A DNA stretch of 32,000 bases from Trichodesmium erythraeum IMS101 (GCF_000014265.1 NC_008312.1:2580001-2612000), one strand, 5' to 3'. Shown: positions 4,082-30,068, counted from the first letter of the stretch. Numbers and translations are program-made. Notes: generated from the sequence alone by a model not told the origin.

Positions 4082-6464
4082 CTACTTGTTCAAGCTCAGT
4101 TGCAGAAGGGTTAGTTTTCTCAAGCTGCCTTAGAAGTTTTTGGATCTCCTCAGCAGCCTCTGCAAGAATTTGGCGATCAGAGGTATTAATATTGATAATA
4201 CCTTCATTTTTTCCAGTTGCTCCAATAACTTGACTGTTAAAGTTCATTTCAACTTCAACATTTTTGGATTCTGTCATGGTACTTACCTCTAAATTAATTG
4301 GGCGATTTGCATACTGACGATGAGTAGTAAGTTCTCTACTAGGAAGTAAACCAACAATAGTAAGAATTATATTAATAATCTCTTCCCTAGAGCCTACTAC
4401 AGCATCTAAATCTAACTTTGCTATTGAGTTTGATAGAATTCTCAACTCTTGATCATTTAATCCGCATAGTATTTCTTCAAAATTTTCTGGATAATTTGAA
4501 TCAGAAAATATTGGAGGAACAGAATTTGGTCGTGAGCTATTCTGAGGGCTTTCCTTGATTTTCAAGATCTCACTTACAAGCCGTGCTTTAGGGGTCACTG
4601 TGTAAGACTTCTGTTGGACATTTTGTAACAATTTGACCCCATTTTCAGAATTGGGTATGGTTTTTGCTAATTTTTGTTCTAATTCTCTAGCTCTTGTGTT
4701 TGATGTATTTAGATGATTTTCTCGTAATTTTAATTCAAAAATTTGTGGCAGCGGTTGGTCAATATTCACTTGTTGAATTCTGGGATTTTTCTTGTATGGA
4801 TAAAAAAACTTGTTAGTAGTCTCTCTATACTCATTCAATAGCTTTAGAAAGTTTTCAATATCTTTTGGTTCAACTAAACGCAAAGATTTTTCCAGACTAG
4901 AGCTAGAGTTAGCCAAATTGATTAGTTCATTTTCAATTTCATTGCGTAGATTATACATATTGTCAAGGCAGGTTGAGTATGTGTCTATTTCTTCAGTAGA
5001 TACATCCAATGGTTGTTTTCTTAGCTTGATTAGTTCAGCTAATGCCTCATCTCTATATTGCAATACTATTCTTTCAGTTTCTGATACTAATTTTTCTTTT
5101 TTCTTTTTTTGCTCAACCGTCATATTTTCTCTGATCATTTGGCTAATAGGATGCTCATATCCAATTGAGGCCATAACTGTATCAAAACTAATACTATCTC
5201 GGCTCTTAAAGGGAAAAAGAATAGAGATTTTTAGATTAGTTCCATCTATCCATTTAGGAACTTGAGTATGTAACTGTGTAAAAAATTCAGTTAATTGCAA
5301 AGAGTATTCAGAGAAATCTATATCAGATTCATCACATAATAGTTTAGCTTTCTCTAAAAATATTTCTTGCCTATCTGAAAATGGTAGTTCAAAAATAGAT
5401 GCAATAAAATTATTATAATTATTATATTTATATTTGAGAATTTCATGAGACTGAGTATGCAATTCAGATTGTTTTTTATGGGCTTTCTTAAACTTATTAA
5501 ATGATGGAATACATTTCTTGGTATTTCCCCACCACTGAAATAATTGATTTTCTAATGAGATGAATTTTGAGTTGCTTTTTTGCTTTATACGTTTTGCTGC
5601 TTTTTCTAAGATTTTTGATGCTTTTGAAGTAAGAAGTTGGCTTGCTGCAAGAAGACATTCATCATAAATATTGGTGGAGATGGAAATTGTCTTGAGTTTG
5701 TTAATAGCAACCTTAAGGTTTTCTTGTTCAAGTTGATGCTTTTCTCGTTTTTTGGATATACTTTCCAAGCGAACGCGACAATCAGACACAATCCTGTTGC
5801 ATCTCCAAGAAGAAGTACTAAGATTATCAATCAAAGATTTATAGTCTGTTGTCTGCTGTCCTAATTTGCGAAGCTTTTCAATAATTTGGGCGACCAATAT
5901 CAGTTCATCCCATAATCTCTCGCTTTTATTAATCCAATCCTTAATGTCTGTGAGTGATCGATCAATGGAACTTATAAAGGAAATAATATCTTGCTCAACT
6001 TGATTCCATTTGTTCAGTGATACCTGGTTTTCTTGATAGAAGTCGTCAATCCAATATCTCATTTGATAGAAAGCCTCATCGGCTGATAAATTTCCCACAG
6101 GAAAAACATCAATCGTTAATTCACCTATATCAGTGAAAAAAACAAAACATGGTACATGACGACCAATTCCTAAGCGTGCAGCAAAACGCATGGATTCACC
6201 AATTCCAGGCATTGCAGTATTATTTTTTACATTAAAAGATAACTCACGAGTTCTTTCAGGCGCGTCTATGGGAAACATTAAATCGGGGGTTAGATCGCGC
6301 CAACGGTCATCATACATTCGTCGAAAGCGATTCCGCCTTGTCCTCCACTCACGACTTCTCATCTCCTCAATAAGTTGGTATATGCCTGCTTCGAGCTGTG
6401 TATCAGGATTATCTTTATGTTGGCAAACTAAACGATAAAGGGCGTCTGCGATCTGTAGGGCCAA
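3999..6464 (-). CDS. Large alpha-helical/coiled-coil protein of unknown function (central part of a probably frame-disrupted ~1000-codon gene)
   Basis: 821-aa ORF whose apparent start is a TTG. I recognised no catalytic motifs. There are long K/E/Q/N-rich helical stretches. The C-terminal NFNSQVIGATGKNEGIININTSDRQILAEAAEEIQKLLRQLEKT module resembles one common in cyanobacterial proteins. Confidence 0.6.
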   Translation of the reverse strand: MALQIADALYRLVCQHKDNPDTQLEAGIYQLIEEMRSREWRTRRNRFRRMYDDRWRDLTPDLMFPIDAPERTRELSFNVKNNTAMPGIGESMRFAARLGIGRHVPCFVFFTDIGELTIDVFPVGNLSADEAFYQMRYWIDDFYQENQVSLNKWNQVEQDIISFISSIDRSLTDIKDWINKSERLWDELILVAQIIEKLRKLGQQTTDYKSLIDNLSTSSWRCNRIVSDCRVRLESISKKREKHQLEQENLKVAINKLKTISISTNIYDECLLAASQLLTSKASKILEKAAKRIKQKSNSKFISLENQLFQWWGNTKKCIPSFNKFKKAHKKQSELHTQSHEILKYKYNNYNNFIASIFELPFSDRQEIFLEKAKLLCDESDIDFSEYSLQLTEFFTQLHTQVPKWIDGTNLKISILFPFKSRDSISFDTVMASIGYEHPISQMIRENMTVEQKKKKEKLVSETERIVLQYRDEALAELIKLRKQPLDVSTEEIDTYSTCLDNMYNLRNEIENELINLANSSSSLEKSLRLVEPKDIENFLKLLNEYRETTNKFFYPYKKNPRIQQVNIDQPLPQIFELKLRENHLNTSNTRARELEQKLAKTIPNSENGVKLLQNVQQKSYTVTPKARLVSEILKIKESPQNSSRPNSVPPIFSDSNYPENFEEILCGLNDQELRILSNSIAKLDLDAVVGSREEIINIILTIVGLLPSRELTTHRQYANRPINLEVSTMTESKNVEVEMNFNSQVIGATGKNEGIININTSDRQILAEAAEEIQKLLRQLEKTNPSATELEQVAYVDVTVYPSHQATNHCCFKGGRWNCN

Positions 6465-6891
6465 ACCTCTGAGAAATTCTTGACAAAAAGAAATCTACTT
6501 CGTTGTAGTTTCGCCAGTGTAGTGCTTCCCAAAAATCATTCAGTATTTCTCCTATACTATATCTGTCTGATCTAGAGAATCTCTCAATTACTTGGTTAAG
6601 AAGGCCATTGTTACGTAGTCTTTTAGCCGAAAAGGAATTAGAGTTCATCCTAGACGCAATATCCTCGAAATATGCTTCAGGAAGCTCTGAGAAGAAAATT
6701 ATGCGTATGCGATCAGCAGTGCGGTGACAGAGATCTATAAAGTAATGGCTAATCAAGTCCTGGCATACAGGTGAGTCATCATTCACAAAAATAATACTTA
6801 AACAAAATCCATCAGTAAGCGATCGGCTATAATTGTCTAACCGAAATAGGTAACGATATATATCTTCTGCTGAAGGTGCTCTATATCCCAT
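6415..6891 (-). CDS. Hypothetical protein, probably the N-terminal fragment of the downstream 3999..6464 gene
   Basis: 158-aa ORF that overlaps the next ORF by 50 nt in a different frame. The downstream frame opens only 12 codons before its TTG start, which fits either a frameshift or an overlapping gene pair. Confidence 0.5.
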   Translation of the reverse strand: MGYRAPSAEDIYRYLFRLDNYSRSLTDGFCLSIIFVNDDSPVCQDLISHYFIDLCHRTADRIRIIFFSELPEAYFEDIASRMNSNSFSAKRLRNNGLLNQVIERFSRSDRYSIGEILNDFWEALHWRNYNEVDFFLSRISQRFGPTDRRRPLSFSLPT

Positions 6892-7136
6892 CGAAGTAAT
6901 CCTTACTCAAATTATATTTAGAGGGCAACTCGATTAATTACTTGATTGTGAATAGAAGAGGACTGAAAGTACTATCCAACCCTAGCTATTCTCAACAAGG
7001 TTTAAATTTTTCGAGAGGCCCTAGAGTATGGGTCCAAGTACTACAGATGACCTGGAAAACAAATTAATTGTGTCAGTCCATTATAAGAGCTATCGGACTC
7101 TAGCTTTGAGCCACATTAACGTTTAATCAATTCTTT

Positions 7137-9089
7137 CTAATCCAACTCAAACTCCTCCTTCCAAGACTCATCCTTTTCCCAAGGAATTTGATCCGTTTTA
7201 GCCATCAAAAAATTCTCCACCACCAAATAATCCATCTCAGTCCGCATAAAACACCGATAAGCATCCTCCGGAGTACAAACAATTGGTTCACCCCGCACAT
7301 TAAAAGAAGTATTCACAATTACCCCACATCCCGTGAGCTTTTCAAAATGACTAATCAAATCATGATAACGAGGATTAGTTTCCTGATGAATAGTTTGAAT
7401 TCTCGCCGAATAATCAACATGAGTAATAGCCGGAATTTCCGAGCGTGGCACATTCAACTTCTCAATACCAAACAACTGCCTTTGGTCCTCAGTCATAGGA
7501 ATTAACAAACCCTCCTGCACCGGAGCTACCAACAACATATAAGGACTAGAATGTTCAATATCAAAATAATCCGAAACTCGTTCCGCCAAAACCGAAGGAG
7601 CAAAAGGTCGAAAAGACTCCCGATACTTAATCTTCAAATTCATCACCGACTGCATCTTAGTATTTCGAGGGTCTCCAATAATAGACCGCCCACCCAAAGC
7701 GCGAGGTCCGAACTCCATCCGACCTTGAAACCATCCCACCACATTGCCATTATCCAAAATTTTTGCCAACCGAGGCATTAACTCTGTATCTGGCAAATAT
7801 TCATATTTTGCCTGAATAGCATCAAGATATTCCCGAATCTCCTCATCTTCAAACTTAGGTCCGAGATAAGCACCCTGCATCATGTCATTAGGAGCACTAC
7901 AAACAAGACGTTTTGCCACAGAAACAGCAGAATTTCTAGACTCCACAGAAGCAGAAACATTGTATTCCTTAGAAATATTCCTAGGAACCTTCCTACTATC
8001 AAGCTTTTCTATTACCCGCGGTTGGTCATGGTATTCGTACCAAACAGCCAAAGCAGCACCTAAGGCACCACCAGCATCTCCCGCTGCAGGTTGAATCCAA
8101 ATATCCTTAAAAATACCTTCCCGTAGAACTTTACCATTCGCTACACAATTAAGAGCAACTCCCCCTGCCAAACAAAGATAGTCAGTATCAAGTTCTTTTT
8201 GCACCGTTCGACTCAGACGTAATACCACCTCCTCAGTTACTCTCTGAATAGAAGCAGCAATATCCATTTCTCGTTGACTAATTTTAGTTTCAGCTTTTCG
8301 AGGAGACCCGCCAAACAATTTATCAAACTTCTCATTAGTCATAGTCAACCCGGTTGTGTAATTGAAATATTCCATATTCAACCGGAAAGTACCATCAGCT
8401 TTTAAATCTATAAGGTTATTTAAAATTAAGTCTACATAATTAGGTTCTCCATAAGGAGCTAAACCCATAAGTTTGTATTCCCCAGAATTGACTTTGAAGC
8501 CTGTGTAATAAGTAAAAGCTGAGTAGAGTAAACCTAAAGAGTGAGGAAAATCAATTTCCCACTGGGGAGTAAGTTTATTTCCTTCTCCCAACCAAACTGA
8601 AGTAGTCGCCCACTCACCCACTCCATCCAGACACATTACCGCAGCACGGTCAAAGGGACTGGGGAAAAAAGCTGAAGCTGCATGAGCTTGATGATGTTCG
8701 GTAAACATCAGTTTGGGGATATGGGATGCTTTACACTGACCCAATGTAGCTAATTCTTTTTTTAAAAGGGTTTTTAAATATAATTTTTCTTTTAACCAGA
8801 TCGGCATTGCCATGAGAAAAGACCGAAAGCCTTTAGGAGCATAGCTGAGGTAAGTTTCCAGAAGTCGCTCGAATTTAACTAAAGGTTTGTCGTAAAAAAC
8901 TATTTGGTCTAAGTCCAGTAATTCTATGTTGGCTTCTTTCAGACAATAGGAAATAGCATTTTGGGGAAATCTGGGATCATGTTTTTTACGAGAAAATCTT
9001 TCTTCTTGGGCGGCGGCGATAATTTTTCCGTCACATACGAGAGCTGCTGCACTATCGTGGTAATAAGCTGAAATTCCTAGGATGTTCAT
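7137..9089 (-). CDS. Carbamoyltransferase, NodU/CmcH family
   Basis: 650-aa ORF. The N-terminus MNILGISAYYHDSAAALVCDGKIIAAAQEERFSRKKHD is the typical Carbam_trans_N signature. The C-terminal VNTSFNVRGEPIVCTPEDA block is typical of the family. Confidence 0.9.
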   Translation of the reverse strand: MNILGISAYYHDSAAALVCDGKIIAAAQEERFSRKKHDPRFPQNAISYCLKEANIELLDLDQIVFYDKPLVKFERLLETYLSYAPKGFRSFLMAMPIWLKEKLYLKTLLKKELATLGQCKASHIPKLMFTEHHQAHAASAFFPSPFDRAAVMCLDGVGEWATTSVWLGEGNKLTPQWEIDFPHSLGLLYSAFTYYTGFKVNSGEYKLMGLAPYGEPNYVDLILNNLIDLKADGTFRLNMEYFNYTTGLTMTNEKFDKLFGGSPRKAETKISQREMDIAASIQRVTEEVVLRLSRTVQKELDTDYLCLAGGVALNCVANGKVLREGIFKDIWIQPAAGDAGGALGAALAVWYEYHDQPRVIEKLDSRKVPRNISKEYNVSASVESRNSAVSVAKRLVCSAPNDMMQGAYLGPKFEDEEIREYLDAIQAKYEYLPDTELMPRLAKILDNGNVVGWFQGRMEFGPRALGGRSIIGDPRNTKMQSVMNLKIKYRESFRPFAPSVLAERVSDYFDIEHSSPYMLLVAPVQEGLLIPMTEDQRQLFGIEKLNVPRSEIPAITHVDYSARIQTIHQETNPRYHDLISHFEKLTGCGVIVNTSFNVRGEPIVCTPEDAYRCFMRTEMDYLVVENFLMAKTDQIPWEKDESWKEEFELD

Positions 9090-12758: not shown

Positions 12759-13405
12759 TGTTTTTTTCTCCGTAATTATCTTCAGTAGTGTTGTTTTATT
12801 AATTATTTTGACATATTCTTCGACTATGAGGATTTATGATTATACTGCAATACAAATGTAATATATAACTTGGAAAAATCTTATTAATTCTGTTAGTTTT
12901 GATCAAAATTGTTGGGGGCTTCAGCAGTTGGGAAAAATTGTAGTGAGTTTCTGATATATTTTGCCTCTAGAATTTATGATATAGTTGCTCTAAAAATTAT
13001 CTGATAACTTGTTGAAAAATAAAAAAATTATTTTTAGGTGACATAGCTGAACTGTAATTTTATCAATGTATATATAAGACTATTCCTGGTTTATAGTTAT
13101 GGGTGTCAACTTTAATTTTAGATATTTACAACAAGTGCATTTGGGGTTATAAAAAAGTTGATAAAAAGTCGAATATCAAGAATTTTTAGTACGGTTAAAA
13201 TTAAAATAGTTAATAGTATGGAGATGGGAGTAATTTCAGTTATCAGTTGTTATTAGCTCTGACTAAATTCTCTGGTTTAAAATACTCAATTTAATATTTT
13301 TTTATCCCTTTAAAAGGGTAGGCTTTATATCTCATTTTTTGGTAAAATAATCCTCGAATTGTAGCAAAAATTTATTCAAATACTATGATTTCAAGTTCAC
13401 GAGAT

Positions 13406-14197
13406 CTATTTTTTGTCAGCAGGAGGACTGAAACGAATTTCTATACGCCTTCTCTGAGGATCTGGATAGCGCTGTACTCCCGCATATTCTCCTGAAGGTA
13501 GATAAAGTTGTGCTGCTGAATAAGCTCGGAATTTTAATTCTAGTTGCTTTAAACGAGGGTTTTTTTCAAGTTCTTTTACTACTGCTAAAGCTCGCATTAA
13601 ACCTAAATCTGCATTAGAACTTGGGGTGAGATTACTAATATTTATATTGTTATTAACACGAGCAACTTCTTCTAAAAGATTATCTAAATTACTTACTTGA
13701 AAACGATTATTTTTTTGGCCATCAGTATGACCAATTACTTGTACGATATAACCTTCTTTCCCTTGAGCATAATTTTCGATTTGCTTCACTAAATTGTTCT
13801 CAATAAAATTAACTAACCCATCAGACAATTCGGCACTACCTGATGGAAATTTACGATTAGATACTTCTGTAATTTCAATTGGTGGTTGGGATGTTAAGCT
13901 AGAAATTTCTTCATTTTTTCTCTTGATAGTCTTTTCTTGTTGCTTTATCTTTTCAGATTTTTCCTGTATTTCTTTGTCTTTTTCTTTGACTTTATCCTGC
14001 AATTTTTTATTCTCTATTTTTACTAATTTAAGTTCAGTATTGACTCTGGAAATATCTGAATTTACAACTCCTGATTTAAGTAATGCTAGGAACAAAAATA
14101 AGCTCAAAATCATAAAAGCGCTCGACATCACATCTGTAAAAGATTGCCAGACATTGAGAGCTTGATTTAACCTTGAATATCGTAAACGGCGACTCAT
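13406..14197 (-). CDS. MotB/ZorB-like protein: N-terminal TM helix with conserved Asp, ~60-aa coiled coil, C-terminal OmpA-like peptidoglycan-binding domain
   Basis: 263 aa. WQSFTDVMSSAFMILSLFLFLALL resembles the MotB YADFMTAMMAFFLV segment, with Asp22 at nt 14132-14134. OmpA_C blocks are FPSGSAEL, VIGHTDG, NADLGLMRALAV and RRRIEIRF. Confidence 0.8.
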   Translation of the reverse strand: MSRRLRYSRLNQALNVWQSFTDVMSSAFMILSLFLFLALLKSGVVNSDISRVNTELKLVKIENKKLQDKVKEKDKEIQEKSEKIKQQEKTIKRKNEEISSLTSQPPIEITEVSNRKFPSGSAELSDGLVNFIENNLVKQIENYAQGKEGYIVQVIGHTDGQKNNRFQVSNLDNLLEEVARVNNNINISNLTPSSNADLGLMRALAVVKELEKNPRLKQLELKFRAYSAAQLYLPSGEYAGVQRYPDPQRRRIEIRFSPPADKK

Positions 14198-14469
14198 AAT
14201 TTTTACTTCTTTATTGATCTGAAAAAATCAAAAAGTTTTGGTAATTAAATAGTGGTTTAAAACCTATGGGTATTTACCAAAATTATAACCATATTATAGT
14301 TTCATAGAGTGAGCAAATCTTTACCCACTCTAAACTTAGTATTAGATTGACTCTGATATTTAATAGTATTAAGTAATGAGGACTTATTAACTTCCAGAAT
14401 TCTTCCATAGGAGCATTTCAGTGGGATACTAAAGCGCCAATATTTGTGGTTCATATTTTATCCCAATTT

Positions 14470-16161
14470 CTAAATAGACTTTCTCCTGGAATTTGCTTCT
14501 AATTGAGAGTCTTTAAATTCAGTAGTATTACTTGAAGATTGGAATTGCAATTGTAAGTTTGATTCTAACTTTTCAAACTTGTTTTTTATCTGACTCAGAT
14601 AATCTACAGATTCTTCAATTTTTCCTCTAAGTGTCCTAATTTCTTGACTATTGTTACCTACCTGTTCAACTAAAGTATTAGTCAAGCGATCGCCTAAATT
14701 ATCTAAACTTGTAATAGATACCTGAAATTTTTCCAATACCTTCTGAATTTCCTGGTTATTAATATCTACTTTTTGGGCTACGTTATCAATTAGCTTGTTA
14801 CCAAAATTTTGAATTTCTGTATTGACTTCTTGGGAATTTGCTTTCAATGTTTTTACAATATTAGCTAGCTCTGATTGTATATTTACCAGACTTTCTTCTC
14901 TAACCTTAATCTCATTCTGTAGGCTTTGAATTATTTGGGAAGCCGACTTAAAATTATTTGCTCCTTCGTTAAGTTTAGGAATAATATTTTGAAGAGATTT
15001 TTGATTGATTTTATGTAATTCAAATACCTCACGATAGTTTTGATTAAAGTTGATAATTTCTGCTGTTAAACTTCCTAGAGTCTGACTGTTTTTATTCGAT
15101 GATTCTTTAATATCGTTTACTGTTTCTTGTAAAGCAGAAGTTGAGCTAGAAAAATTTTGTTGCATGGTAGCTAAATTTTGAGTAGCTTCTGATAATTTTT
15201 TAGGAAATTGACTTTGTTGAAATGTTTTAGATGCCTCCTTAAATTCTTTTACTGTAGGTTTCATCTCATCAGCAATAATATTTTGAAAGTTATTAACAAC
15301 TGATTCAAATCTACCTGCTGCATTAGATATTGTCCCAGAAGATTCAGTAAATCTTGTATAAACTTGTTTAGCGATATCAGCCGCTTCTTTGTTACCTTCG
15401 GAAATTTCTCTTGCTATTTTTCCCAAGGATGATTCCACTGCATTTGTTACATTTTGATGAAATCTATTTAAGAAGTAATTTTGCTGTTCTACCATGCGGT
15501 TAACAGCCTTATCAAGTCTAGTATTACCTTCTATTTTTGGTTGTAAAATATTATCGAGGTAATCTTCTAAATAGCTGATTAAATCTTCTCTTGCCAAATT
15601 AGTATTCCATTTAAGGTTAATTACTGTTAATAAGGAACTACAAGCTACAGCAATTAAGCTAGTAATAAAAGCAATTCCCATACCTTGGATAGGGTCTTGT
15701 AATTGCTCGACTAAGTTATTTATATCAGTTGCTTTAACTTGATTAATTGTTTGAATTAAGCTTGATAAGTTAATGACTATTCCAAGAAAAGTGCCTAATA
15801 TTCCAAAGGATATTAATAGGTTAGGTAATGCTTGAGAAAAGTAATCCCATTGATGGCATCGTAATGGAAATCCTAAAAAATCAAATTTTTCTTGGCTATA
15901 AATTCCATCTACTAATGCTGCTGTATTAACTTCTTCTAAATTTTTACTTGCTATGGAAAATCTTGCCTCTAAATATTCAATTATTTTAGGTTTTCGTCCT
16001 GGACTTATCTCGCGAATTAGTCTTCTAACTTTATCATTTAAATATATTAAATAATTGTAGAGTCGGATACGCACTATGGCAGTAAATATAGTGGGAAAGA
16101 TTACCAATACTATACTCAAGATAAGCAATGGAAATGGAATTAGCTGGAATAATTCAACCAT
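14470..16161 (-). CDS. MotA/ExbB/TolQ-family channel protein with a long C-terminal helical tail (ZorA-like architecture)
   Basis: 563 aa. Predicted TM helices lie at about residues 5-30, 110-132 and 160-182. Family-typical blocks are LPNLLISFGILGTFLGIV and GMGIAFITSLIAVACSSLLTV (core at nt 15607-15849). Residues ~186-563 are uninterrupted Q/N/S/E-rich helix or coiled coil. An AAGGAG Shine-Dalgarno (16170-16175) sits 8 nt upstream of the ATG. Confidence 0.75.
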   Translation of the reverse strand: MVELFQLIPFPLLILSIVLVIFPTIFTAIVRIRLYNYLIYLNDKVRRLIREISPGRKPKIIEYLEARFSIASKNLEEVNTAALVDGIYSQEKFDFLGFPLRCHQWDYFSQALPNLLISFGILGTFLGIVINLSSLIQTINQVKATDINNLVEQLQDPIQGMGIAFITSLIAVACSSLLTVINLKWNTNLAREDLISYLEDYLDNILQPKIEGNTRLDKAVNRMVEQQNYFLNRFHQNVTNAVESSLGKIAREISEGNKEAADIAKQVYTRFTESSGTISNAAGRFESVVNNFQNIIADEMKPTVKEFKEASKTFQQSQFPKKLSEATQNLATMQQNFSSSTSALQETVNDIKESSNKNSQTLGSLTAEIINFNQNYREVFELHKINQKSLQNIIPKLNEGANNFKSASQIIQSLQNEIKVREESLVNIQSELANIVKTLKANSQEVNTEIQNFGNKLIDNVAQKVDINNQEIQKVLEKFQVSITSLDNLGDRLTNTLVEQVGNNSQEIRTLRGKIEESVDYLSQIKNKFEKLESNLQLQFQSSSNTTEFKDSQLEANSRRKSI

Positions 16162-16182
16162 AATTAAAACTCCTTTAGATTA
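16148..16182. repeat. 35-bp direct repeat, copy A (covers the start codon and SD of the MotA-like gene)
   Basis: aataattcaaccataattaaaactcctttagatta matches 16466-16500 with 3 mismatches in 35. Confidence 0.85.
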
Positions 16183-16465
16183 AATCCATAAATCTTTTTT
16201 TTATTTGCCACTAAAAATTATAATTTTGTGGTAAATCACATCAAATATAGCATTTCTTAGTTTAGTGAAGTACAGTTATATTTTATCTTTTTTCTTAGTA
16301 TTTGCCTGTTGATTGTTTTCTGTTGACTAAAATCAATAATTTTTACCTCACAAGTATAATAATTTTTAGATGTCCCAGAATAGAAACAAATAAACTTTGT
16401 TTTCCTATGTTTTTTGAGTAGATTCTGCAATAACTTTTCGACTCTTTTTTTTTGTAATTATTTAA

Positions 16466-16500
16466 AATAATTCAACCATAATTAAAGCTCCTTTATCTTA
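16466..16500. repeat. 35-bp direct repeat, copy B (abuts the stop codon of the tubulin-like gene)
   Basis: aataattcaaccataattaaagctcctttatctta. On the minus strand it supplies AAGGAG, an 8-nt spacer, then ATG GTT GAA TTA TTT TAA. That is a mini-ORF, MVELF-stop, at 16479..16462. Confidence 0.85.
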
Positions 16501-16501
16501 C

Positions 16502-19500
16502 TTAAATACCTAATATATTTTTCTTAGCTGCCTGAAATTCTGCATCTGTCAAAAATCCCTGTTCTTTCATCCTTACTAAATCCTTCAATTGTTTCATCCG
16601 GTCATCTCCTGAATTATGTTGCTTATCGCGATAATTTGGAGAATTATCTAAATCAATATCAACGTCAATAATTTCATCCTTTATTACCTCCTTATTTTCC
16701 TCTGTTACAGTAGATTTTGACTGAAGTAATTGTATATTTTTTACTTTTTTTTGTATACGACGGCGAAAGCGATTAATAATTCCTTCCTTTCCAGAATTTT
16801 CAGTTGTTGGTGGTGTTCCAACTACCGTATCTTTATAAGGATAATTAAGATCATCTTCCGGTAAATTATCAATTTGTTTAACAAACTTTTGCAACTTCGG
16901 TAAATAATAGTTTTCCCAGAGCAGAGGTTCTTTATCTATTTTTTCTACTTCTTTATCCAGAATATTTTTCAAAGCCTCTGTCATATCCTGCCGATTAGCT
17001 AATTCCTCTAAAGCTTGATTCCAAACTGAACTAAGCTCCGCAGTGTAATAACTATCTCGCATATCATTGTAATACATAAATTCTAATAACTCATCCCCAT
17101 TTTTTTGAATTAATTCTAAAGCCAAACAAGGATAAAAAATATCTTCTAACTCTTCTATTTTTGCTGCATCTGGAGGAATAATATCAGCAAAGAAAATCCG
17201 ATTGTTATTATGGAGAAAAGAAGTAGAATAATTCATTTCTCGAATGTAAGAATTTCTCATTTGCTCAAGATTAGTAATTAGTCTCAAAGGAAAAGCTGCA
17301 TATTCTTTAACGATTAAAATTTGGTCTTCCGCTTGAGTTGGTTTAAGAGTATTATTGTCAACTCCTAAATCTCCCACCAAAATATCTTTAAATTGTTTAA
17401 CTCCTTCATCATCAGTATCTTTAAATCCTATTAATTGACTGTGTTTAGAATCCCTATCTCTGAAGTAAATAGCATTAAAATCTAAAGGTAAAAGTGGTTC
17501 AGCCTCCTGCATAATTTGTCCCAAACGAGTGCTCCTTTCAACCCTAGAATAGTTCTGTAGAAAACGCTTAATTACAGAATTAACAATATTAGTACTCCGA
17601 ACTCCAAATAACCTATCTACTGTGAGATTAACTTCTTCTTTTACTTGCTCTTCTTCCCTGACTTTTTCTCTGATAAAAATTGCAATTGATTGCCCGTCTT
17701 CAGACGATTTAGTAATTTCCGAACTTAGTTGTACCAATTGTGACTTTAGCTCTTCGAGAGGGAGTAAAATTTGAGAACAGTTATTGATATCTTCCTCCGC
17801 AAAAATAGCTTCTCCACTCATTTCATCAAAGTCTAGTTGTTTTAAATTTGCTTGTTCTTTTTCATAGTCATTTTTAAGGTTATTAAGTAAGTTTGTAAAT
17901 TCTCTTAGTTGGGCAGCAATATTTTCAACATGATTTTGTAAATTTCTTACTATTTCAAGAGTTTCTTGGAAAACTATTAAGTCAAAATTATGTCTAATTA
18001 AATCGCAAATTTGTCTGACTATTCTTTTAGCTTCAGCTTGAAATTCTCTATTCTTACCTCCCAATAAAGGCAGTTCAAATTTATTCTCAATATCTGCAAT
18101 TATCTGTTCGCCATCTTGCCATTTTCTGTCTACATCCTCTAATATCTTACTACCATTAAAATCTACAATTTTTTCTTCAATATCCCTTTGATAATTATTC
18201 AGTTCATTTTTCATTGCTTCTAGCCATTCCCGACTACTTCTAATAGAAAAATTATCATTACTCGGACTTAGCAAATCCACAATAAAACTATTAATATTTT
18301 GTTGAAATTCCACTGTAATTTTCGGACAAATTTGTTGCAACCTTGTCAACCAAACCCCTCTACTACTATCAGTTGTTCCGGGAATAACCTTTCTAAATTG
18401 CTCTCGAAAATCTCTCGGTAATCGTTGCTGTAATGCTATCCGGTCATCCTTATTTTGAGACTCAGAAATTGCCCTATCTAATTTATTTCTCCAAGCATTA
18501 ATTGTACTTTGAAAATTCTTATTAGACTCTTCCACAGATTCGGCTAATCTTCTACTTAATCCATCTCGTTTTTGCAAGTCATCATGCCAGCGATATTGAA
18601 GTAAAAATCTTTCCAGTAATAAAACCGAATCTGGGCTTTGACCTTCACCATTTAACCAGAAATTAACTAAATTTAAACTAATACGATTTAAAGCTATTTG
18701 AACAATTTTATCCCGTGGAAAATAAATAGCCGCCATACCAAAAGTTAAGTAGCGTTGAATATTAGGACGAGGGTGATTATCATATTGGATTAAATCTTGT
18801 AAAAAATTATCTCTCATACCTTTAACTATAGGCGCTAATTCTCCAGAAAAATCCAAAGCAATTTTATGAGCAATAACATTACATAATTTACGTTGCTCAA
18901 GAATTTTATATCCTCCTGTTGTCTCATTAGAAACCAAATAAGCATAATCATAAGGAGGTCGTTCTGATTGAACAATTACTAAGTCTTGTATATCGTAACA
19001 AGCTTCAAATTTTGTACCAGGAGTAGTGTAATGATTTAGTTCTTTTAAGGCTGCATAAGTATTAGCTTTCATATTAGTATTATTTCCATATAACTCAGGA
19101 CTAATTACTAAATAACCAACAATTTTAGTGTTTTGCTGACCATAAGAATGTCTCAAACTATAAGCAACATCTAAAAACATTCCACTGCCAGTACCTCCAC
19201 AAAGAGAACCCACAATAAAAATATTTACTCCCCCATCTACCCTTAACCCCATTTTTAGTAAAATACCCTCATTTCCTCTAGTTTTTTTTTCCGCTATTTC
19301 AATTGCTTTTTGAATCTTACGATAGTTATGAAAAAAAGCTAATCTTCCTACTGGTCTAATTCCTTTTGCACCCTCTTCTATTGCCTTAATATTCCGATTA
19401 AGTTGAGGAGGAAACCATTGACGAATATGGTCGTAAGGTCCTGTTCTTTCAGAAGTGGAATGTTTTTCTAATTCTTGAGTAAAATTATCCACATCTCTGC

Positions 19501-19774
19501 TACTCATTGTGGCACTAACTTTCTCAGCTTCCTTAAAACTAAGGTCAACTCCATGATATGTACTGCCAGTTCTTAAACCAGATATTTGACTAGCTGACTT
19601 GTCAGTATCAATATGAACAAAACTCACAATTGGCAGTTTTTCTAAATCCCCATAACTATCTACAATTAATCTACGAATTCGCATCAAAATATCTCTACCA
19701 GTACCTCCTATTCCGATACAAATAGTACGATTAATTCCTCTAGACTGGCGTTCTTGACTAGTTGATTGAATCAT
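16502..19774 (-). CDS. Giant tubulin/FtsZ-superfamily GTPase-like protein (Tubulin_2-like N-terminal domain, ~700-aa helical extension, SHOCT-like C-terminus)
   Basis: 1090 aa. T1-like loop CIGIGGTGRDI at residues 19-29 (GIGGTG at nt 19697-19714). A GAKGIRPVGR block resembles FtsZ GAGANPEVGR. The tubulin signature GGTGSG is at residues 193-198 (nt 19181-19198, checked on the DNA). The C-terminal MKQLKDLVRMKEQGFLTDAEFQAAKKNILGI resembles a SHOCT domain. A strong AAGGAGG SD (19783-19789) lies 8 nt from the ATG. Confidence 0.75.
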   Translation of the reverse strand: MIQSTSQERQSRGINRTICIGIGGTGRDILMRIRRLIVDSYGDLEKLPIVSFVHIDTDKSASQISGLRTGSTYHGVDLSFKEAEKVSATMSSRDVDNFTQELEKHSTSERTGPYDHIRQWFPPQLNRNIKAIEEGAKGIRPVGRLAFFHNYRKIQKAIEIAEKKTRGNEGILLKMGLRVDGGVNIFIVGSLCGGTGSGMFLDVAYSLRHSYGQQNTKIVGYLVISPELYGNNTNMKANTYAALKELNHYTTPGTKFEACYDIQDLVIVQSERPPYDYAYLVSNETTGGYKILEQRKLCNVIAHKIALDFSGELAPIVKGMRDNFLQDLIQYDNHPRPNIQRYLTFGMAAIYFPRDKIVQIALNRISLNLVNFWLNGEGQSPDSVLLLERFLLQYRWHDDLQKRDGLSRRLAESVEESNKNFQSTINAWRNKLDRAISESQNKDDRIALQQRLPRDFREQFRKVIPGTTDSSRGVWLTRLQQICPKITVEFQQNINSFIVDLLSPSNDNFSIRSSREWLEAMKNELNNYQRDIEEKIVDFNGSKILEDVDRKWQDGEQIIADIENKFELPLLGGKNREFQAEAKRIVRQICDLIRHNFDLIVFQETLEIVRNLQNHVENIAAQLREFTNLLNNLKNDYEKEQANLKQLDFDEMSGEAIFAEEDINNCSQILLPLEELKSQLVQLSSEITKSSEDGQSIAIFIREKVREEEQVKEEVNLTVDRLFGVRSTNIVNSVIKRFLQNYSRVERSTRLGQIMQEAEPLLPLDFNAIYFRDRDSKHSQLIGFKDTDDEGVKQFKDILVGDLGVDNNTLKPTQAEDQILIVKEYAAFPLRLITNLEQMRNSYIREMNYSTSFLHNNNRIFFADIIPPDAAKIEELEDIFYPCLALELIQKNGDELLEFMYYNDMRDSYYTAELSSVWNQALEELANRQDMTEALKNILDKEVEKIDKEPLLWENYYLPKLQKFVKQIDNLPEDDLNYPYKDTVVGTPPTTENSGKEGIINRFRRRIQKKVKNIQLLQSKSTVTEENKEVIKDEIIDVDIDLDNSPNYRDKQHNSGDDRMKQLKDLVRMKEQGFLTDAEFQAAKKNILGI

Positions 19775-20089
19775 GGTTTTTACCTCCTTTAATATTGACC
19801 ACTAAATGCTTACTAGCAATTTGAATAAAACCACATAGTTCTACATTTTCATTTCTACCACATTCTATTACAATATTTACAGCACTTGAAGCACAATAAC
19901 GACGACTTTAATTAGTCAACCCATACAATTATGGGATAGAAAATGTAGATTTTGCTCGATAAACTTCTAAAGTTCAATGATGGGTTTTTACCCATACTTT
20001 TAATTCTTTAAAACCTCTCAATTGCTTTTTATTCCTTTAAAAACAATAAAGCTAATAGCTAATAGCTGAACCCTGAATACTTACCTTTA

Positions 20090-21229
20090 CTATTTTTTAA
20101 TTTTGATAATTATCTCATAATCGCGATTTCTTCCATCAGGACAATTAAGCCTAACTTGAGAACTAGATATTAAAGTACGACTCAAAACTTTTTTCCCATT
20201 AAGATAAATTTCTGCATTCCCAGTTGGTTCTAGAGAAAGTCGATTTCCTTTCCTGATTAAAAAACCTCGAATTTCTGGTCCGGGGGTATCTATTGAATCA
20301 ACACAAAATTCATCATATTCACCAATAGCAATTTTTTTATTATTCGGCAAACGACAAATTTGGTATTCCTCGATTTTACTGCTACTAAAATCAACAATTA
20401 ACTCCCATTTTTTTTGCAGACTTATCCATTTTTTTACTCCCACTATAAACCCTATAAAAACCAACAAAAAAATTAACCCAGGTAGCCATAATAACTTCCC
20501 TAAATAAGAATTAACCAAACAAGTTTCCCTGCCTCCCGGTGCTGGGGTACAAAATTCTTGAACAGTAGGAGCAATATCCACAACCGCTAGTTGATATTCT
20601 TCACCATTTTCTGTTCTAATTAACAGCTTTCTCTCGTCTAAAGGTAAAGCATTTATCCAAGATATTCGCCGTTGACTTTCCTCAGAATTTTCTACTCTAA
20701 AAGGGCTATCTTTAGGAGTTTCTATCCACACATTTGAATCAATTCCTGCTGCAGTTAAAAGTGGTGCATCAGTAATCCAAATTACCGACTGAGGTTTAAT
20801 CGATTGATTTTTTTCTAAGCGACATTGATTAATCTGAGCTAGGTTTTGATAAAGAAATAATTCTGCTCCTTGAATATCCGTATTTTGTAGAGTTAAATTT
20901 GGCTTAAATGGCACTAACTCCAAAATTTTACTGATGTCTTGTTTGCCATTAAATTTAACTGCCCCTTCAACTGTCAAGGGATTAATTCTTGGTGCGAGAG
21001 GATTAATATTTGTGGCAAAAGGTACAACATAGACTTTATCTCCAGGCCGCAAACTATCTTTAACGATCTGACGCAAACGGATACGACCTTCATCATTTAA
21101 GCCTACACTTTCTGTTAAGTCAATTGCTAATACTACATCTCGTCCACCATAAATATTGGCAACTAATTCTAGCCCTGTTTTTTGCCAATATTGGATATTT
21201 TGTCCTGTACTAACTATGGAACAATTCAC
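20090..21229 (-). CDS. vWA domain - single TM - FHA-like domain protein
   Basis: 379 aa. MIDAS-like VVLAIDLTES at residues 33-41 (DLTES at nt 21107-21121). Hydrophobic helix LLWLPGLIFLLVFIGFIVGV at about residues 246-265. The C-terminal KIAIGEYDEFCV...IRGFLIRKGNRLSLEPTGNAEIYLNGKKV resembles a degenerate FHA fold. The apparent start is GTG with no obvious SD, so the 5' end is uncertain. Confidence 0.65.
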   Translation of the reverse strand: MNCSIVSTGQNIQYWQKTGLELVANIYGGRDVVLAIDLTESVGLNDEGRIRLRQIVKDSLRPGDKVYVVPFATNINPLAPRINPLTVEGAVKFNGKQDISKILELVPFKPNLTLQNTDIQGAELFLYQNLAQINQCRLEKNQSIKPQSVIWITDAPLLTAAGIDSNVWIETPKDSPFRVENSEESQRRISWINALPLDERKLLIRTENGEEYQLAVVDIAPTVQEFCTPAPGGRETCLVNSYLGKLLWLPGLIFLLVFIGFIVGVKKWISLQKKWELIVDFSSSKIEEYQICRLPNNKKIAIGEYDEFCVDSIDTPGPEIRGFLIRKGNRLSLEPTGNAEIYLNGKKVLSRTLISSSQVRLNCPDGRNRDYEIIIKIKK

Positions 21230-21371
21230 TACAAATAAAAAATTAGAAAATGAGTTAATGGTGATTAATAATTGAATTAATTAAACTATAACCCATCATA
21301 GGTCAAAAAAATATAGTCACATAAGACATATTCTCCTGCATTGCAGGTGTTAACCTGACTAGGTGAACTAC

Positions 21372-21420
21372 AACTAATAACTAATAACTAATAATTGATA
21401 ATTGATAATTGATAATGAAT
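21372..21420. repeat. Heptamer tandem repeat (AACTAAT)x3 (AATTGAT)x3 AATGAAT, STRR-like
   Basis: Seven consecutive 7-nt units were counted directly. The array lies in the divergent spacer between the vWA gene and the MATE gene. Confidence 0.9.
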
Positions 21421-21979
21421 AATTACCTCTAATTAAAACCGTATTGATCCTCACAGAAAGTAACATCAAGTGTTCAATAAATGTTATTTTCGATACTCCA
21501 ATGAGTTTGAATAGCATGGCGAAGGAATTGGATATTACCAGGTAGAGAGGTCATTTTAGTTATTAGTTATCAATGCTTATCCCTGAAATTGGAGACTTGA
21601 AATACCGAATATTTTTTTGAATTGACCACTTTATTTACCTATAGTAGTAGTTAAACATAACGGTTTTATAAATCGTAATTTCGTTTCTTGATAACTAACT
21701 TTTGTGAGTCAAACGAAAAATAAATCTATAGGTTCTATTTTTGTAGCATTTAGGTACATATCAATTTTGAATAAAGCCAAAAAATTATCACTTTTAAGGA
21801 AAACTTAACCGGAAACAAGGAATAGAAAAAAAGTATTTTTGCCAATAAAATATGAAATGCATTCTAACATCTAAATTATCCAGTATCTAAAACGGCAAAT
21901 AATTTTGCTTATGCTTTACATAAAATCAGCATAAAATTTGTATGAGCAAACTATAAAAAATTATGAAAAATTTGGGAAT

Positions 21980-23347
21980 ATGAAATCTATAATTAAAAAT
22001 AGCTTTATTCGATTAACTTTAGTCAACATTTTATCTAATTTAATGGTACCTTTAGCAAGTCTAATAGACTTAGCTTTTTTAGGTTATTTAGATGAAATTC
22101 GTCATTTAGCAGGAGTTTCCATTGCCACAGTTTTATTTAACTATATTTACTGGACTTTTGGATTTTTACGCATGAGTACAACTGGTACAACTGCTCAAGC
22201 TAATGGCAGTAGAAATTACCACGAAGTAAAACAAATTTGTCTACGTAATTGCTTAATTGCTTTAACCATTGCCACAATAATTATAATTTTCCAATATCCT
22301 TTACGAGAAATTGGCTTTAATTTACTTAGTGCAACTCCAGAAGTAAAAGCTAGTGGTATTAACTACTATAAAAGTTTAATTTGGGGTGCCCCTGCTACCT
22401 TATTAAACTTCGTATTAATAGGTTGGTTTTTAGGACTCGAACAAGGAGGAAAAGTTTTACTATTATCAATAGTTAATAAAGGAACAAATATTATCCTAGA
22501 CTATATTTTTATTGTTCGTTGGGGATGGGAAAGTAGCGGAGCTGGTAGTGCTACAGCAATAAGTCAATATATAACTTTAGTTATCGGTATGATTTGTGTT
22601 TTTAAATTCATATATTTAGCAGAAATTCCTCAGTTAATCAAAAATATTTGGCAACCTCAAGTAATTAAAAAAACTTTTATTCTCAATCGAGATATTCTGA
22701 TTCGTACTTTTGCTATAATTTCTACTTTTGCTGTATTTACTAATTTAAGCTCATACATAAATACTCTAGTTTTAGTAACTAATACTCTGTTATTACAGGT
22801 AGTTACATTAGCCGCTTATTTTATTGACGGTCTAGCTTTTGCCACAGAAAGCTTAGCAGGAAAAAGTTATGGTAAAAGAAATCAAAAAGAATTAAAAGCA
22901 TTGGTAAAATTATCAGGGATAATTGGTATAAGTATCGGATTAATTTTTGCCTTTATTTTCTGTTTATTCCCGACTACTTTATTTAGTTTGTTGACTAATC
23001 ATACTCAGGTTATTAACAATATTAGTAGTTATGTTTTATGGTTAATACCTATCTTGGGTTTTGGAGGCATAGCTTATATTTTAGATGGTTATTTTCTAGG
23101 TTTAACTCAAGGAAATTTGTTGCGCAATTCTACTTTAGTTGCTAGTTTAATAGGATTTTTACCCTTTGCTATAGTCGGTTTATTGTTAAAAAATAATCAT
23201 ATATTATGGTTATCTTTGGCAATGTTTATGGCAACTAGAGCTATTACTCTAGGTAAGGCTATTCCTAATATAATTGTTGAAAAATTTTCGGCTTCAATAG
23301 AACTCATCAAAGACAAGAATAATAAAAAACATATTACTCCTAAATAA
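21980..23347 (+). CDS. MATE family efflux transporter (DinF-like)
   Basis: About 12 hydrophobic segments. The N-terminal LVNILSNLMVPLASLIDLAFLGYL...LAGVSIA block is typical of MATE/DinF proteins. The track ORF begins at a TTG at 21938, and the first ATG (21980) is the more likely start. Confidence 0.85.
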   Translation: MKSIIKNSFIRLTLVNILSNLMVPLASLIDLAFLGYLDEIRHLAGVSIATVLFNYIYWTFGFLRMSTTGTTAQANGSRNYHEVKQICLRNCLIALTIATIIIIFQYPLREIGFNLLSATPEVKASGINYYKSLIWGAPATLLNFVLIGWFLGLEQGGKVLLLSIVNKGTNIILDYIFIVRWGWESSGAGSATAISQYITLVIGMICVFKFIYLAEIPQLIKNIWQPQVIKKTFILNRDILIRTFAIISTFAVFTNLSSYINTLVLVTNTLLLQVVTLAAYFIDGLAFATESLAGKSYGKRNQKELKALVKLSGIIGISIGLIFAFIFCLFPTTLFSLLTNHTQVINNISSYVLWLIPILGFGGIAYILDGYFLGLTQGNLLRNSTLVASLIGFLPFAIVGLLLKNNHILWLSLAMFMATRAITLGKAIPNIIVEKFSASIELIKDKNNKKHITPK

Positions 23348-23826
23348 CTCTTTTTATTCCATAATTTACCACTAAATTAGGTTGGAATTCTACCCTTTAA
23401 AGGTGATAACAAAAAGCGTAAGTAGGTGGGTTTAATTATTCCTACAATAATAATAAAAATTCAAAAAGGTGAAAAGCTCTTGAAAAGTTACTTATAAGTC
23501 TCTTTTCATATTTTTCATTTTAATCTTTATTTGTGCCTACTTACTTAGTCTTGCTCCCATAATAGTTTTTGAGTAAAATGGAGATGTGGAGTCATGAGAT
23601 GATGGGATGATAGAATGATAGGGGGTATTTTTCCTGTTCTGGGAACCTGATGCCTGATCTTGAATTTTTTCCTCAGACGACCATCAAAAAATTGCCACGC
23701 CCCCATCTCTTTCACATCAATATGCATCACCACTAAACAAAGAAAATTCAGTATTTCAAGCCCTCCCTATTGCGCGAGGCACTGTTAACTGATAACTCAT
23801 AACTAAAACTATATTAGGTGAACATT

Positions 23827-24516
23827 ATGACAGTAATAATTAACTTCTGGAAAGGTACACTTGGATATACTGCATATAATGCTATATATGGGTTAGATGT
23901 AGGTCACGCTTCTATGCAGGTTATTAATAACAAAAACCCCAAAGATGAAATTTATATAAGCCATAACCCTAAAATTAAAAACTCTATAGCTTTTTTGCCC
24001 AACTCTCGCAAATATCTTTCTTTAGAATCTATTGTAGCAGATAGTTTTATTCCTAGAGAAAAACATATTTCTTTTGAAAAAGATTGTGATAACCGGGATA
24101 GTAAACCTAACAATAAAATTGTTATTTATGGTTTAAATGAATCTCCGATAATAAAGTTTTCTCAAAAGTATTTAAATAATGATTTATCAAAAGAAAAAAC
24201 TAAATATCATTTTATCAAAAATAATTGTTGTACAGTTATAGTTTATTTGATTTCCAAGGGACTAGACCGTAATCAAAAAAACTCTAAGTTGTGTTCACCT
24301 TCGAGTTATCAAACCGATTCATTTTTTGGATATGACTCTAATATTGAGAAATTAGTTATAAGTTTTAATAAAAAATTTTGGTCTCCCCGTTCCCTGAAAT
24401 CTTTTGTTAAAAAAGTCAAAAATAAAACTGATAAAAAATCCTCTTTACTATCCTTTTCTGTGCCTAAAAGAAAACTCTTATTACCACAATCACTTGAGAA
24501 TTTATTTGATAGGTAA
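23827..24516 (+). CDS. Hypothetical protein with permuted papain-like His...Cys motifs (PPPDE/DeSI- or LRAT/NlpC-like putative thiol peptidase)
   Basis: LDVGHASMQV (His block) is followed ~110 residues later by KYHFIKNNCCTVIVYLISKGL, which resembles the Y-x-L-x-x-NNC-x-HF Cys block of PPPDE/LRAT-type enzymes. An AGGTGA SD-like sequence lies upstream of the ATG at 23827. The track ORF starts at a GTG at 23818. Confidence 0.45.
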   Translation: MTVIINFWKGTLGYTAYNAIYGLDVGHASMQVINNKNPKDEIYISHNPKIKNSIAFLPNSRKYLSLESIVADSFIPREKHISFEKDCDNRDSKPNNKIVIYGLNESPIIKFSQKYLNNDLSKEKTKYHFIKNNCCTVIVYLISKGLDRNQKNSKLCSPSSYQTDSFFGYDSNIEKLVISFNKKFWSPRSLKSFVKKVKNKTDKKSSLLSFSVPKRKLLLPQSLENLFDR

Positions 24517-29543: not shown

Positions 29544-30068
29544 TTAATTGTTTTTATCGTTTAAAAATATTTGATAGTTTTCCTGAACTTTTTGAGTGTG
29601 AGGATGTTCTTCGCCTAATGATTGTTTAAATATTTCAATTGCTTGTAGCAACAACGGTTCTGCCGCTTCGTATTTTCCTTGCTCACGATATAATTCTGCC
29701 AGGTTGTTGAGACTAGCGGCAATATTTGGATGATTTTCAGGGAGGGCAATTTTGTAGATTTCAATAGCTTGTAGCAACAACGGTTCTGCTGCTTCATATT
29801 TTCCTTGTGCGCGATATAATTCTGCCAGGTTGCTCAGACTAACAGCAATATTTGGATGATTTTCAGGGAGGGCAATTTTGTAGATTTCAACTGCTTGTAG
29901 CAACAACGGTTCTGCTGCTTCATATTTTCCTTGCTCACGATATAATTCTGCCAGGTTGTTGAGACTAACAGCAATATTTGGATGATTTTCAGGGAGGGCA
30001 ATTTTGTAGATTTCAATAGCTTGTAGCAACAACGGTTCTGCTGCTTCATATTTTCCTTGTGAATAATA
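29544..30068 (-). CDS. TPR-repeat protein, C-terminal fragment of an IS-split gene (kinesin-light-chain-type TPR_10/12 repeats)
   Basis: Repeated 42-aa units ALPENHPNIAVSLNNLAELYREQGKYEAAEPLLLQAIEIYKI. The reading frame is open from the IS junction (30068) to the stop at 29544. Confidence 0.8.
   Translation of the reverse strand, partial: YYSQGKYEAAEPLLLQAIEIYKIALPENHPNIAVSLNNLAELYREQGKYEAAEPLLLQAVEIYKIALPENHPNIAVSLSNLAELYRAQGKYEAAEPLLLQAIEIYKIALPENHPNIAASLNNLAELYREQGKYEAAEPLLLQAIEIFKQSLGEEHPHTQKVQENYQIFLNDKNN

Follow-up and report, generated by a model that had tools for sequence, protein, structure and literature searches.

Within the tubulin/FtsZ superfamily, FtsZl1 proteins (Tubulin_2, Pfam family PF13809) form the branch that has diverged furthest. 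They number thousands of members across bacteria and archaea, and they carry no recognisable polymerisation parts. The type protein is 1051 amino acids (aa) long (Makarova & Koonin 2010, Biol Direct 5:33, PMC2875224). The second described system of relevance here is the anti-phage system Zorya (Hu et al. 2024, Nature 639:1093), in which ZorA and ZorB make up a 5:2 motor whose long tail lies in the cytoplasm; a search of the literature found no paper that connects tubulin-like or FtsZ-like proteins with stators of the Zorya or MotA kind. Here, we have analysed a window of 32,000 nucleotides (nt) from Trichodesmium erythraeum IMS101 (NC_008312.1:2580001-2612000), in which an FtsZl1 gene, Tery_1707 (16502..19774, minus strand), stands beside two genes whose products resemble ZorA and ZorB. 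Neither the protein and its family nor its size and neighbouring genes are new, all of these having been published in 2010 (PMC2875224), entered in Pfam and annotated by NCBI. The new element is a small one, and consists in reading the neighbouring B7 and OmpA-family proteins as a long-tailed, ion-driven, ZorAB-like stator beside FtsZl1. This ZorA-like reading of B7, together with the parallel to Zorya, provides a concrete and testable lead for FtsZl1 function.

Compared with its own family, Tery_1707 shows no difference at the protein level, sharing the N-terminal divergent FtsZ-like domain with GGTG(S/T)G, the long coiled-coil or helical middle, the helical C-terminal region and the length of ~1050-1100 aa; the SHOCT-like tail described below is an addition of the cyanobacterial clade. 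The operon is also alike, with a vWA gene upstream and membrane-protein and OmpA-family genes downstream. Where FtsZl1 loci do differ is in their partners, which in cyanobacteria are a fixed ZorAB-like pair and in actinobacterial and archaeal operons are kinases and P-loop GTPases. An earlier sequence-only reading of this DNA had called it unusual for a tubulin-fold protein of three times the usual size to lie beside a stator pair, with FtsZ, TubZ, PhuZ and BtubAB as its comparison, which overlooked the FtsZl1/Tubulin_2 family, where 1000-1200 aa is the norm and most full-length members fall within that range.

Results

The open reading frame (ORF) at 16502..19774 begins with ATG and encodes 1090 aa, ending in MKQLKDLVRMKEQGFLTDAEFQAAKKNILGI, with the tail motif at aa 1060-1090 corresponding to nt 16505-16597. 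Positions are those of the window throughout, and all features lie on its minus strand unless stated otherwise. Pfam PF13809 matches residues 18-370 with an E value of 5e-111 and 371.8 bits (cut-off 27) over profile positions 1-355 of 356, which is far above chance, and the same family is matched by 25 of 25 orthologues. Additional file 5 of Makarova & Koonin (PMC2875224) lists Tery_1709 (2600090..2601229(-), 379 aa, COG2304 vWA), Tery_1707 (GI 113475384, 2596502..2599774(-), 1090 aa, labelled FtsZl1), Tery_1706 (2594470..2596161(-), 563 aa, family B7) and Tery_1705 (2593406..2594197(-), 263 aa, COG1360 OmpA family). Four consecutive minus-strand ORFs in the window are identical to these in length and, once 2,580,000 is subtracted from the published values, in coordinates. 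Since lengths and coordinates equal the published entries, the 1090-aa ORF is a member of the founding list of the family; its product is almost certainly FtsZl1, and Tery_1707 is an ordinary FtsZl1 (Tubulin_2, PF13809) member.

The closest genome match for this protein comes from a Trichodesmium metagenome-assembled genome (94%), followed by Okeania (88%), and the family comprises 4019 clusters at 50% identity (E <= 1e-3) from a search of 1.84 billion cluster representatives. The product name that NCBI gives to orthologues is 'tubulin-like doman-containing protein'; no NCBIfam family matched the FtsZl1 protein, and a hydropathy scan detected zero transmembrane segments in it. A literature search with the locus tags Tery_1707, DR_0538, alr2043, Ava_1848, MAE_54080 and tll1020 located no paper.

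The sequence-only reading had placed a stator pair next to this gene, and the two proteins encoded downstream are indeed of the ZorA/ZorB (MotA/MotB) type. Tery_1706 (14470..16161), which carries the label 'B7, membrane-associated protein' in the 2010 study (PMC2875224), is a 563-aa ZorA-like ion-channel subunit with transmembrane helices at residues 12-30, 115-135 and 163-181 and a helical tail of ~375 aa. It scores an E value of 6e-15 against the PADLOC ZorA models, reaches 43.7 bits with NCBIfam antiphage_ZorA_2 (cut-off 100) and 40.5 bits with ZorA_3 (cut-off 250), and matches the solved ZorA chains 8qyy and 8qyd. When a profile of 25 of its orthologues was searched against the PDB, 8vvn_C (1.5e-9) and 8qyd_A (1.6e-7) were retrieved, and none of the best 60 matches was a MotA, ExbB or TolQ chain. 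Orthologues range from 463 to 932 aa, which makes the tail variable in length, with Microcystis versions at 718-932 aa. Public databases list many of these orthologues under the names 'methyl-accepting chemotaxis protein', 'chromosome segregation ATPase' or 'SbcCD ATPase'; on ZorA-like proteins such names look like misannotation, of which the coiled-coil tail is the probable cause.

Tery_1705 (13406..14197) is a 263-aa ZorB/MotB-like protein with one transmembrane helix, a coiled-coil linker and an OmpA-like peptidoglycan-binding domain. It matches PADLOC ZorB1 (5e-5), the NCBIfam MotB family (2.6e-9, below cut-off) and, in the PDB, the peptidoglycan-binding domain of PomB (0.003). Its transmembrane helix bears the conserved aspartate of FTDVM, and the pattern F-T-D-(L/V)-M is present in 70 of the 84 loci introduced below. 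Among characterised proteins, ZorA and ZorB come closest to this pair. Given that the channel core formed by the second and third transmembrane helices aligns with ZorA, that the B subunit has the transmembrane aspartate and an OmpA/PomB-like domain, and that the genes follow the A-then-B order, Tery_1706 and Tery_1705 fit the wider MotA/MotB-type class of ion-driven motors, with a predicted stoichiometry of 5:2.

The likeness to Zorya thus extends to the three transmembrane helices and variable-length helical tail of Tery_1706, and to the transmembrane aspartate and peptidoglycan-binding domain of Tery_1705. The locus differs from Zorya in having no ZorC, D, E, F or G, its partners being instead a tubulin-like GTPase and a vWA-like protein, in the scores of Tery_1706, which fall under the NCBIfam ZorA thresholds, and in its setting, which is chromosomal, apparently vertical and flanked by housekeeping genes. 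None of the soluble partner sets of Zorya (ZorC with ZorD, ZorE, or ZorF with ZorG) was found in the window, the other scanned ORFs of which are housekeeping genes.

The arrangement of the genes was followed by tblastn with the four window proteins. A genome scan gave the closest 80 loci, and the 84 loci fetched are all cyanobacterial, from Trichodesmium, Nostocales, Pleurocapsales and Crocosphaera. The order vWA-like, FtsZl1, ZorA-like, ZorB-like on one strand is kept in 76-78 of the 84, with the vWA-like gene directly upstream of FtsZl1 in 78, and most exceptions are contigs too short to include the neighbours. The gene for FtsZl1, a soluble protein, is firmly linked to those for a vWA-like membrane protein and for the two ZorAB-like stator subunits. 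Identity of FtsZl1 falls from 88% in Okeania to ~63% in Oscillatoriales, 55-62% in Nostocales and ~50% in Pleurocapsales, and gene order stays constant throughout. The cassette genes of Nostoc and Crocosphaera are 10-70 bp apart and their outer flanks differ; the Trichodesmium cassette lies between housekeeping genes, encoding leucyl-tRNA synthetase, uroporphyrinogen decarboxylase and a MATE transporter. The intergenic gaps of the Trichodesmium cassette are 272-340 bp, compared with ~10-120 bp in most other loci, those of Nostoc and Crocosphaera included, and a scan of the cassette region (13000-22000) for Rfam families and for promoter-like and terminator-like sites returned nothing above chance.

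A comparable arrangement is seen in Deinococcus deserti, where the gene after FtsZl1 encodes a protein of 411 aa with homology to the B7 profile from cyanobacteria (hhalign 93%) and the next gene an OmpA-family protein; both proteins match ZorA/ZorB models. The 2010 supplement (PMC2875224) labels the Deinococcus FtsZl1 neighbours as MotA/TolQ/ExbB and OmpA. On sequence grounds, then, a ZorAB-like stator is paired with FtsZl1 in two phyla.

Relatives on mobile replicons are few, with 10 among 72,556 plasmids and one among 50,697 phage records. The sole relative of the Tubulin_2 domain in the phage collection lies at 7075-7965 of MT836542.1 (25% identity, E 1e-10), a 9.8-kb contig from human faeces that is recorded as 'Bacteriophage sp.' and carries no annotation. 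On plasmid pTHEOS01 of Thermus oshimai the gene order is vWA, tubulin-like, a 677-aa hypothetical protein, a BrxL Lon-like protease and a 3'-5' exonuclease, and on plasmid p2 of Azospirillum sp. TSA2s the tubulin-like gene adjoins genes for two caspase-family, two OmpA-family, PEGA and DUF4384 proteins. These loci of distant FtsZl1 paralogues look like conflict or defence contexts.

The N-terminal part of Tery_1707 contains the tubulin/FtsZ-like guanosine triphosphate (GTP)-binding domain (aa ~12-375, 18650..19741). We modelled residues 1-400 with AlphaFold2 from an alignment of 70 relatives (26-94% identity), which were also used to assess motif conservation, and obtained a mean predicted local distance difference test (pLDDT) score of 87.6 and a predicted template modelling (pTM) score of 0.85. 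Foldseek with this model returned 636 PDB matches at E <= 1e-3, of which the top 50 are all CetZ, BtubA, alpha-, beta- or gamma-tubulin, or FtsZ, with no P-loop or Rossmann protein among those 50. The best match is CetZ2 (4b45_A, E 6e-8, TM-scores 0.40/0.47), and the alignments cover 310-390 target columns at TM-scores of 0.40-0.47. Residues ~12-375 adopt the tubulin/FtsZ nucleotide-binding fold, and not a P-loop or generic Rossmann fold, which the sequence-only reading had named as an outcome that would refute it. At the level of sequence, PF00091 (Tubulin) gives a weak match at aa 180-249 (22.5 bits, cut-off 33), and the whole protein has zero matches in the PDB; a full-length family profile searched against the PDB returned coiled-coil noise (spike HR1, apolipoproteins) and was discarded.

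Three loops that had been picked out from the sequence map to the positions claimed for them. The T1-like loop GIGGTG (aa 21-26, 19697..19714), in which G21, G23, G24 and G26 are invariant in the 70 relatives, pairs with GVGGGGGN of Escherichia coli FtsZ. The T3-like loop GAKGIRPVGR (aa 135-144, 19343..19372), with G135, A136, R140 and R144 conserved at 99-100%, pairs with GAGANPEVGR. The T4 signature GGTGSG (aa 193-198, 19181..19198), whose conservation among orthologues had been named as decisive, has invariant G193, G194, T195 and G196 with S197 and G198 at 94-97%, and lies inside the PF00091 match; the residue preceding it is a cysteine (C-GGTGSG, compared with the superfamily signature GGGTG(S/T)G). 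The residues invariant across the 70 sequences are G21, G23, G24, G26, D56, W120, R140, G193, G194, T195, G196, E245 and G346, and T25, G135, A136, R144, S197, G198, D202 and N238 are conserved at 90% or above. Among the 25 cyanobacterial orthologues all three motifs are identical, with a mean column identity of 70% over the full-length protein.

When the profile is aligned with the sequence of E. coli FtsZ, S2 pairs with VEFFAVNTD, the T3 pattern GAGxIRxxGR with its counterpart and S4-T4 with VFIAAGMGGGTGTG, and the pairing extends over S5-H5 too. In hhalign local mode this match is weak (E 0.0014, probability 17.6% with a single-sequence template) and is trustworthy as far as helix H5. The GTP-contacting loops T1, T3 and T4 are kept, and the nucleotide pocket is, as predicted from these residues, intact. 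Beyond H5 the model has three strands and helices at 294-310, 314-328 and 354-375; conserved residues in this part are D308 (90%), D332 (90%) and R321 (94%), which are candidate catalytic residues. FtsZl1 has its nucleotide-binding fold and its T1, T3 and T4 loops in common with FtsZ, CetZ, tubulin and BtubAB, among which CetZ and BtubA match best in structure. Identity to these proteins is ~12-16%, and FtsZl1 differs from them in having large T1-T3 insertions, a 700-residue extension and no recognisable H7-T7 or C-terminal activation domain.

The sequence-only reading had confined the GTPase-like region to the first ~350 residues and described the remainder as helical, which agrees with both the extent of the PF13809 match and an AlphaFold2 model of residues 381-1090 (pLDDT 86.8) consisting mostly of helices with one alpha/beta module. 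In this model a helical stalk (aa ~381-775, 17450..18634) that includes a continuous 74-residue helix at aa 573-646 leads to the alpha/beta module (aa ~778-914, 17033..17443), which carries a family-wide E..FPLR..Y..H motif with E824, F828, P829, L830, R831, Y843 and H855 each conserved at 90% or above in 59 sequences. A terminal helical bundle follows (aa ~918-1020, 16715..17023; model residues 538-640), and then a poorly conserved, disordered linker (aa 1021-1054, 16613..16714) with pLDDT <50 (model residues 641-674) and gappy, variable columns among orthologues. A separate fold search with residues 381-1090, as had been advised, found no significant structural relative in the PDB or BFVD. 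Its best matches (ClyA-type toxins, tape-measure and SMC-like proteins) had TM-scores <= 0.25 and were set aside as generic long-helix matches. These C-terminal 700 residues are conserved as well as the N-terminal domain, with invariant residues up to aa 1003.

The protein closes with a two-helix tail (aa 1056-1088, 16511..16609) that had been likened to SHOCT. The likeness itself holds up, in that the model has two helices here and a SHOCT-type tail is found in nearly all of the 25 orthologues; PF09851 (SHOCT), for its part, matches aa 1062-1088 at 22 bits, below its cut-off of 27. Six of the 25 orthologues match SHOCT at E <= 0.01 (best 1.7e-6), and others match GvpG or DMAP_binding. The resemblance is real but weak, and the tail is best described as SHOCT-like, a certified SHOCT domain not being established.

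Upstream of FtsZl1 lies Tery_1709 (20090..21229), which encodes 379 aa with a divergent vWA-like domain, assigned to COG2304 in PMC2875224 and bearing an invariant D37-x-T39-x-S41. It has one hydrophobic (transmembrane) helix at aa 247-265, and its C-terminal domain (aa ~295-379) resembles FHA, by eye only. A profile of its orthologues searched against the PDB for vWA or FHA relatives gave zero matches.

Discussion

The explanation that we favour, and consider somewhat better than even, is that FtsZl1, with its tubulin fold, belongs to a cassette with a ZorAB-like stator and a vWA-like protein that acts at the cell envelope. With a similar degree of assurance, we think that FtsZl1 works together with the ZorAB-like pair. 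In such a system, Tery_1706 and Tery_1705 would assemble into a wall-anchored, ion-driven motor of the 5:2 stator type, from which the helical tail of the ZorA-like subunit would project into the cytoplasm. FtsZl1 would bind GTP, and probably hydrolyse it, and would self-associate at the membrane, beside or on the ZorA-like tail, by means of its stalk and its own SHOCT-like tail; the vWA-like protein would be an adaptor or regulator in the membrane. In line with the proposal of Makarova & Koonin (PMC2875224), the cell envelope may thereby be locally remodelled or kept under surveillance. A specific coupling of motor to GTPase is a good deal more tentative, and on balance we doubt it. We are equally cautious about the wider possibility that FtsZl1 cassettes constitute a distinct class of ZorAB-like machines, in which a peptidoglycan-anchored 5:2 rotary motor drives or gates a tubulin-superfamily GTPase instead of a nuclease-helicase. 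Were it true, a stator-type motor would be directly coupled to a cytoskeleton-type protein, and cyanobacteria would possess a chromosomally fixed envelope system for remodelling or surveillance.

Several observations weigh against this explanation. The stator proteins score under the NCBIfam ZorA and MotB cut-offs, and the PADLOC scores report on relatedness only. In Microcystis aeruginosa NIES-843 (Additional file 5, PMC2875224) the FtsZl1 gene MAE_54080 stands alone at 4.97 Mb, with MAE_58790 (B7) and MAE_58800 (OmpA family) at 5.42 Mb, ~450 kb away, and a stator neighbour is absent beside many FtsZl1 genes of other phyla. For the vWA-like protein, Pfam VWA_2 is matched by only 2 of 18 orthologues (E 0.04), and the assignment is drawn from COG2304 and the invariant DxTxS. 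The literature searched contained no experimental study of any FtsZl1 protein, and gene order alone leads us to propose that FtsZl1 touches the ZorA-like tail. In a check for the C-terminal (T7) domain of tubulins, which the sequence-only reading had recommended, confidence in the alignment with FtsZ falls to zero beyond ~residue 250, past helix H5, and neither T6-H7-T7 nor the C-terminal activation domain could be aligned with FtsZ by profile. The acidic and basic residues named above are conserved at 90-94% in that part of the protein. Makarova & Koonin (PMC2875224) were likewise unable to identify T6-H7-T7 and the C-terminal activation domain in FtsZl1. Neither GTP hydrolysis nor polymerisation of FtsZl1 can be assumed.

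Of the other explanations, the one that survives best is that the cassette is a Zorya-like anti-phage or conflict system. Here the peptidoglycan-anchored ZorAB-like motor would sense perturbation of the envelope during infection and its tail would activate FtsZl1 as an effector in place of ZorC/ZorD, for example by letting it assemble with GTP and so block the infection or the cell. The kinship of the two downstream genes, whose nearest characterised relatives are ZorA and ZorB, speaks for this, as does the variation in tail length among orthologues, which recalls that of the PADLOC ZorA models (383-1063 positions). Defence would also suit the company kept by distant paralogues, namely the BrxL Lon-like protease and exonuclease in Thermus and the two caspase-family proteins in Azospirillum, together with a patchy distribution (Synechocystis, Synechococcus and Prochlorococcus have no FtsZl1 in the 2010 list, PMC2875224) and the few plasmid copies. 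However, the Trichodesmium flanks are housekeeping genes, and identity declines smoothly with taxonomic distance with no change in gene order, a pattern that looks like vertical descent and not like that of a mobile defence island. No PADLOC model is matched by FtsZl1 or by the vWA-like protein, the cassette has no nuclease or helicase effector, and the counts on plasmids and in phage records are very low. We regard a defence role as unlikely, albeit one to be taken seriously, and prefer the envelope cassette only provisionally.

It could also be that the tubulin-like domain does not polymerise at all and serves as a nucleotide-binding switch, or as a scaffold without activity, while the work is done by the helical region as a structural tether. 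The elements with which tubulin and FtsZ polymerise are unidentifiable in FtsZl1, and the equal conservation of the C-terminal 700 residues would be in keeping with this. However, the phosphate-binding glycines are invariant and, because these and D56, R140, R144, D202 and E245 are kept down to 26% identity, a working nucleotide site can be argued for; we consider this alternative very improbable.

A cytomotive filament of the FtsZ/TubZ/PhuZ kind, that is, a head-to-tail polymer with T7-triggered GTP hydrolysis and a role in division, cell shape or DNA positioning, fares no better. The tubulin/FtsZ fold, the intact T1, T3 and T4 loops and the length of the Foldseek alignments would all be expected of it, and the conserved acidic residues D308 and D332 past H5 could replace the T7 residue. 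Set against these are the unalignable T6-H7-T7 and C-terminal activation domain, TM-scores that reach just 0.40-0.47, conserved partners that are membrane proteins with no TubR/tubC-type partner among them, and the fact that FtsZl1-bearing organisms retain a conventional FtsZ (Makarova & Koonin 2010, PMC2875224). We judge such a filament to be very improbable. A mobile-element tubulin of the TubZ/PhuZ type was rejected on account of the chromosomal housekeeping context and the near absence of plasmid and phage relatives. TubZ and PhuZ, divergent bacterial members of the same superfamily, are ~300-480 aa long with a T7 loop and C-terminal domain, filaments and DNA-binding adaptors, features for which FtsZl1 shows no recognisable counterpart.

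Other features of the window

Four further ORFs had no Pfam match at E <= 0.001, namely those at 3999-6464 (-) (821 aa), 23818-24516 (+) (232 aa), 2888-3367 (-) (159 aa) and 6415-6891 (-) (158 aa). Towards the end of the window, a TPR_10/TPR_12 tandem-repeat gene (29544-32000, minus strand) built of 126-bp, 42-aa repeats is apparently split by an insertion sequence. Its ORFs at 29544-30032 and 31093-31944, the latter passing the window end, flank a DDE_Tnp_4 transposase ORF (30290-31039, minus strand), and the repeat copies are 93-96% identical to one another.

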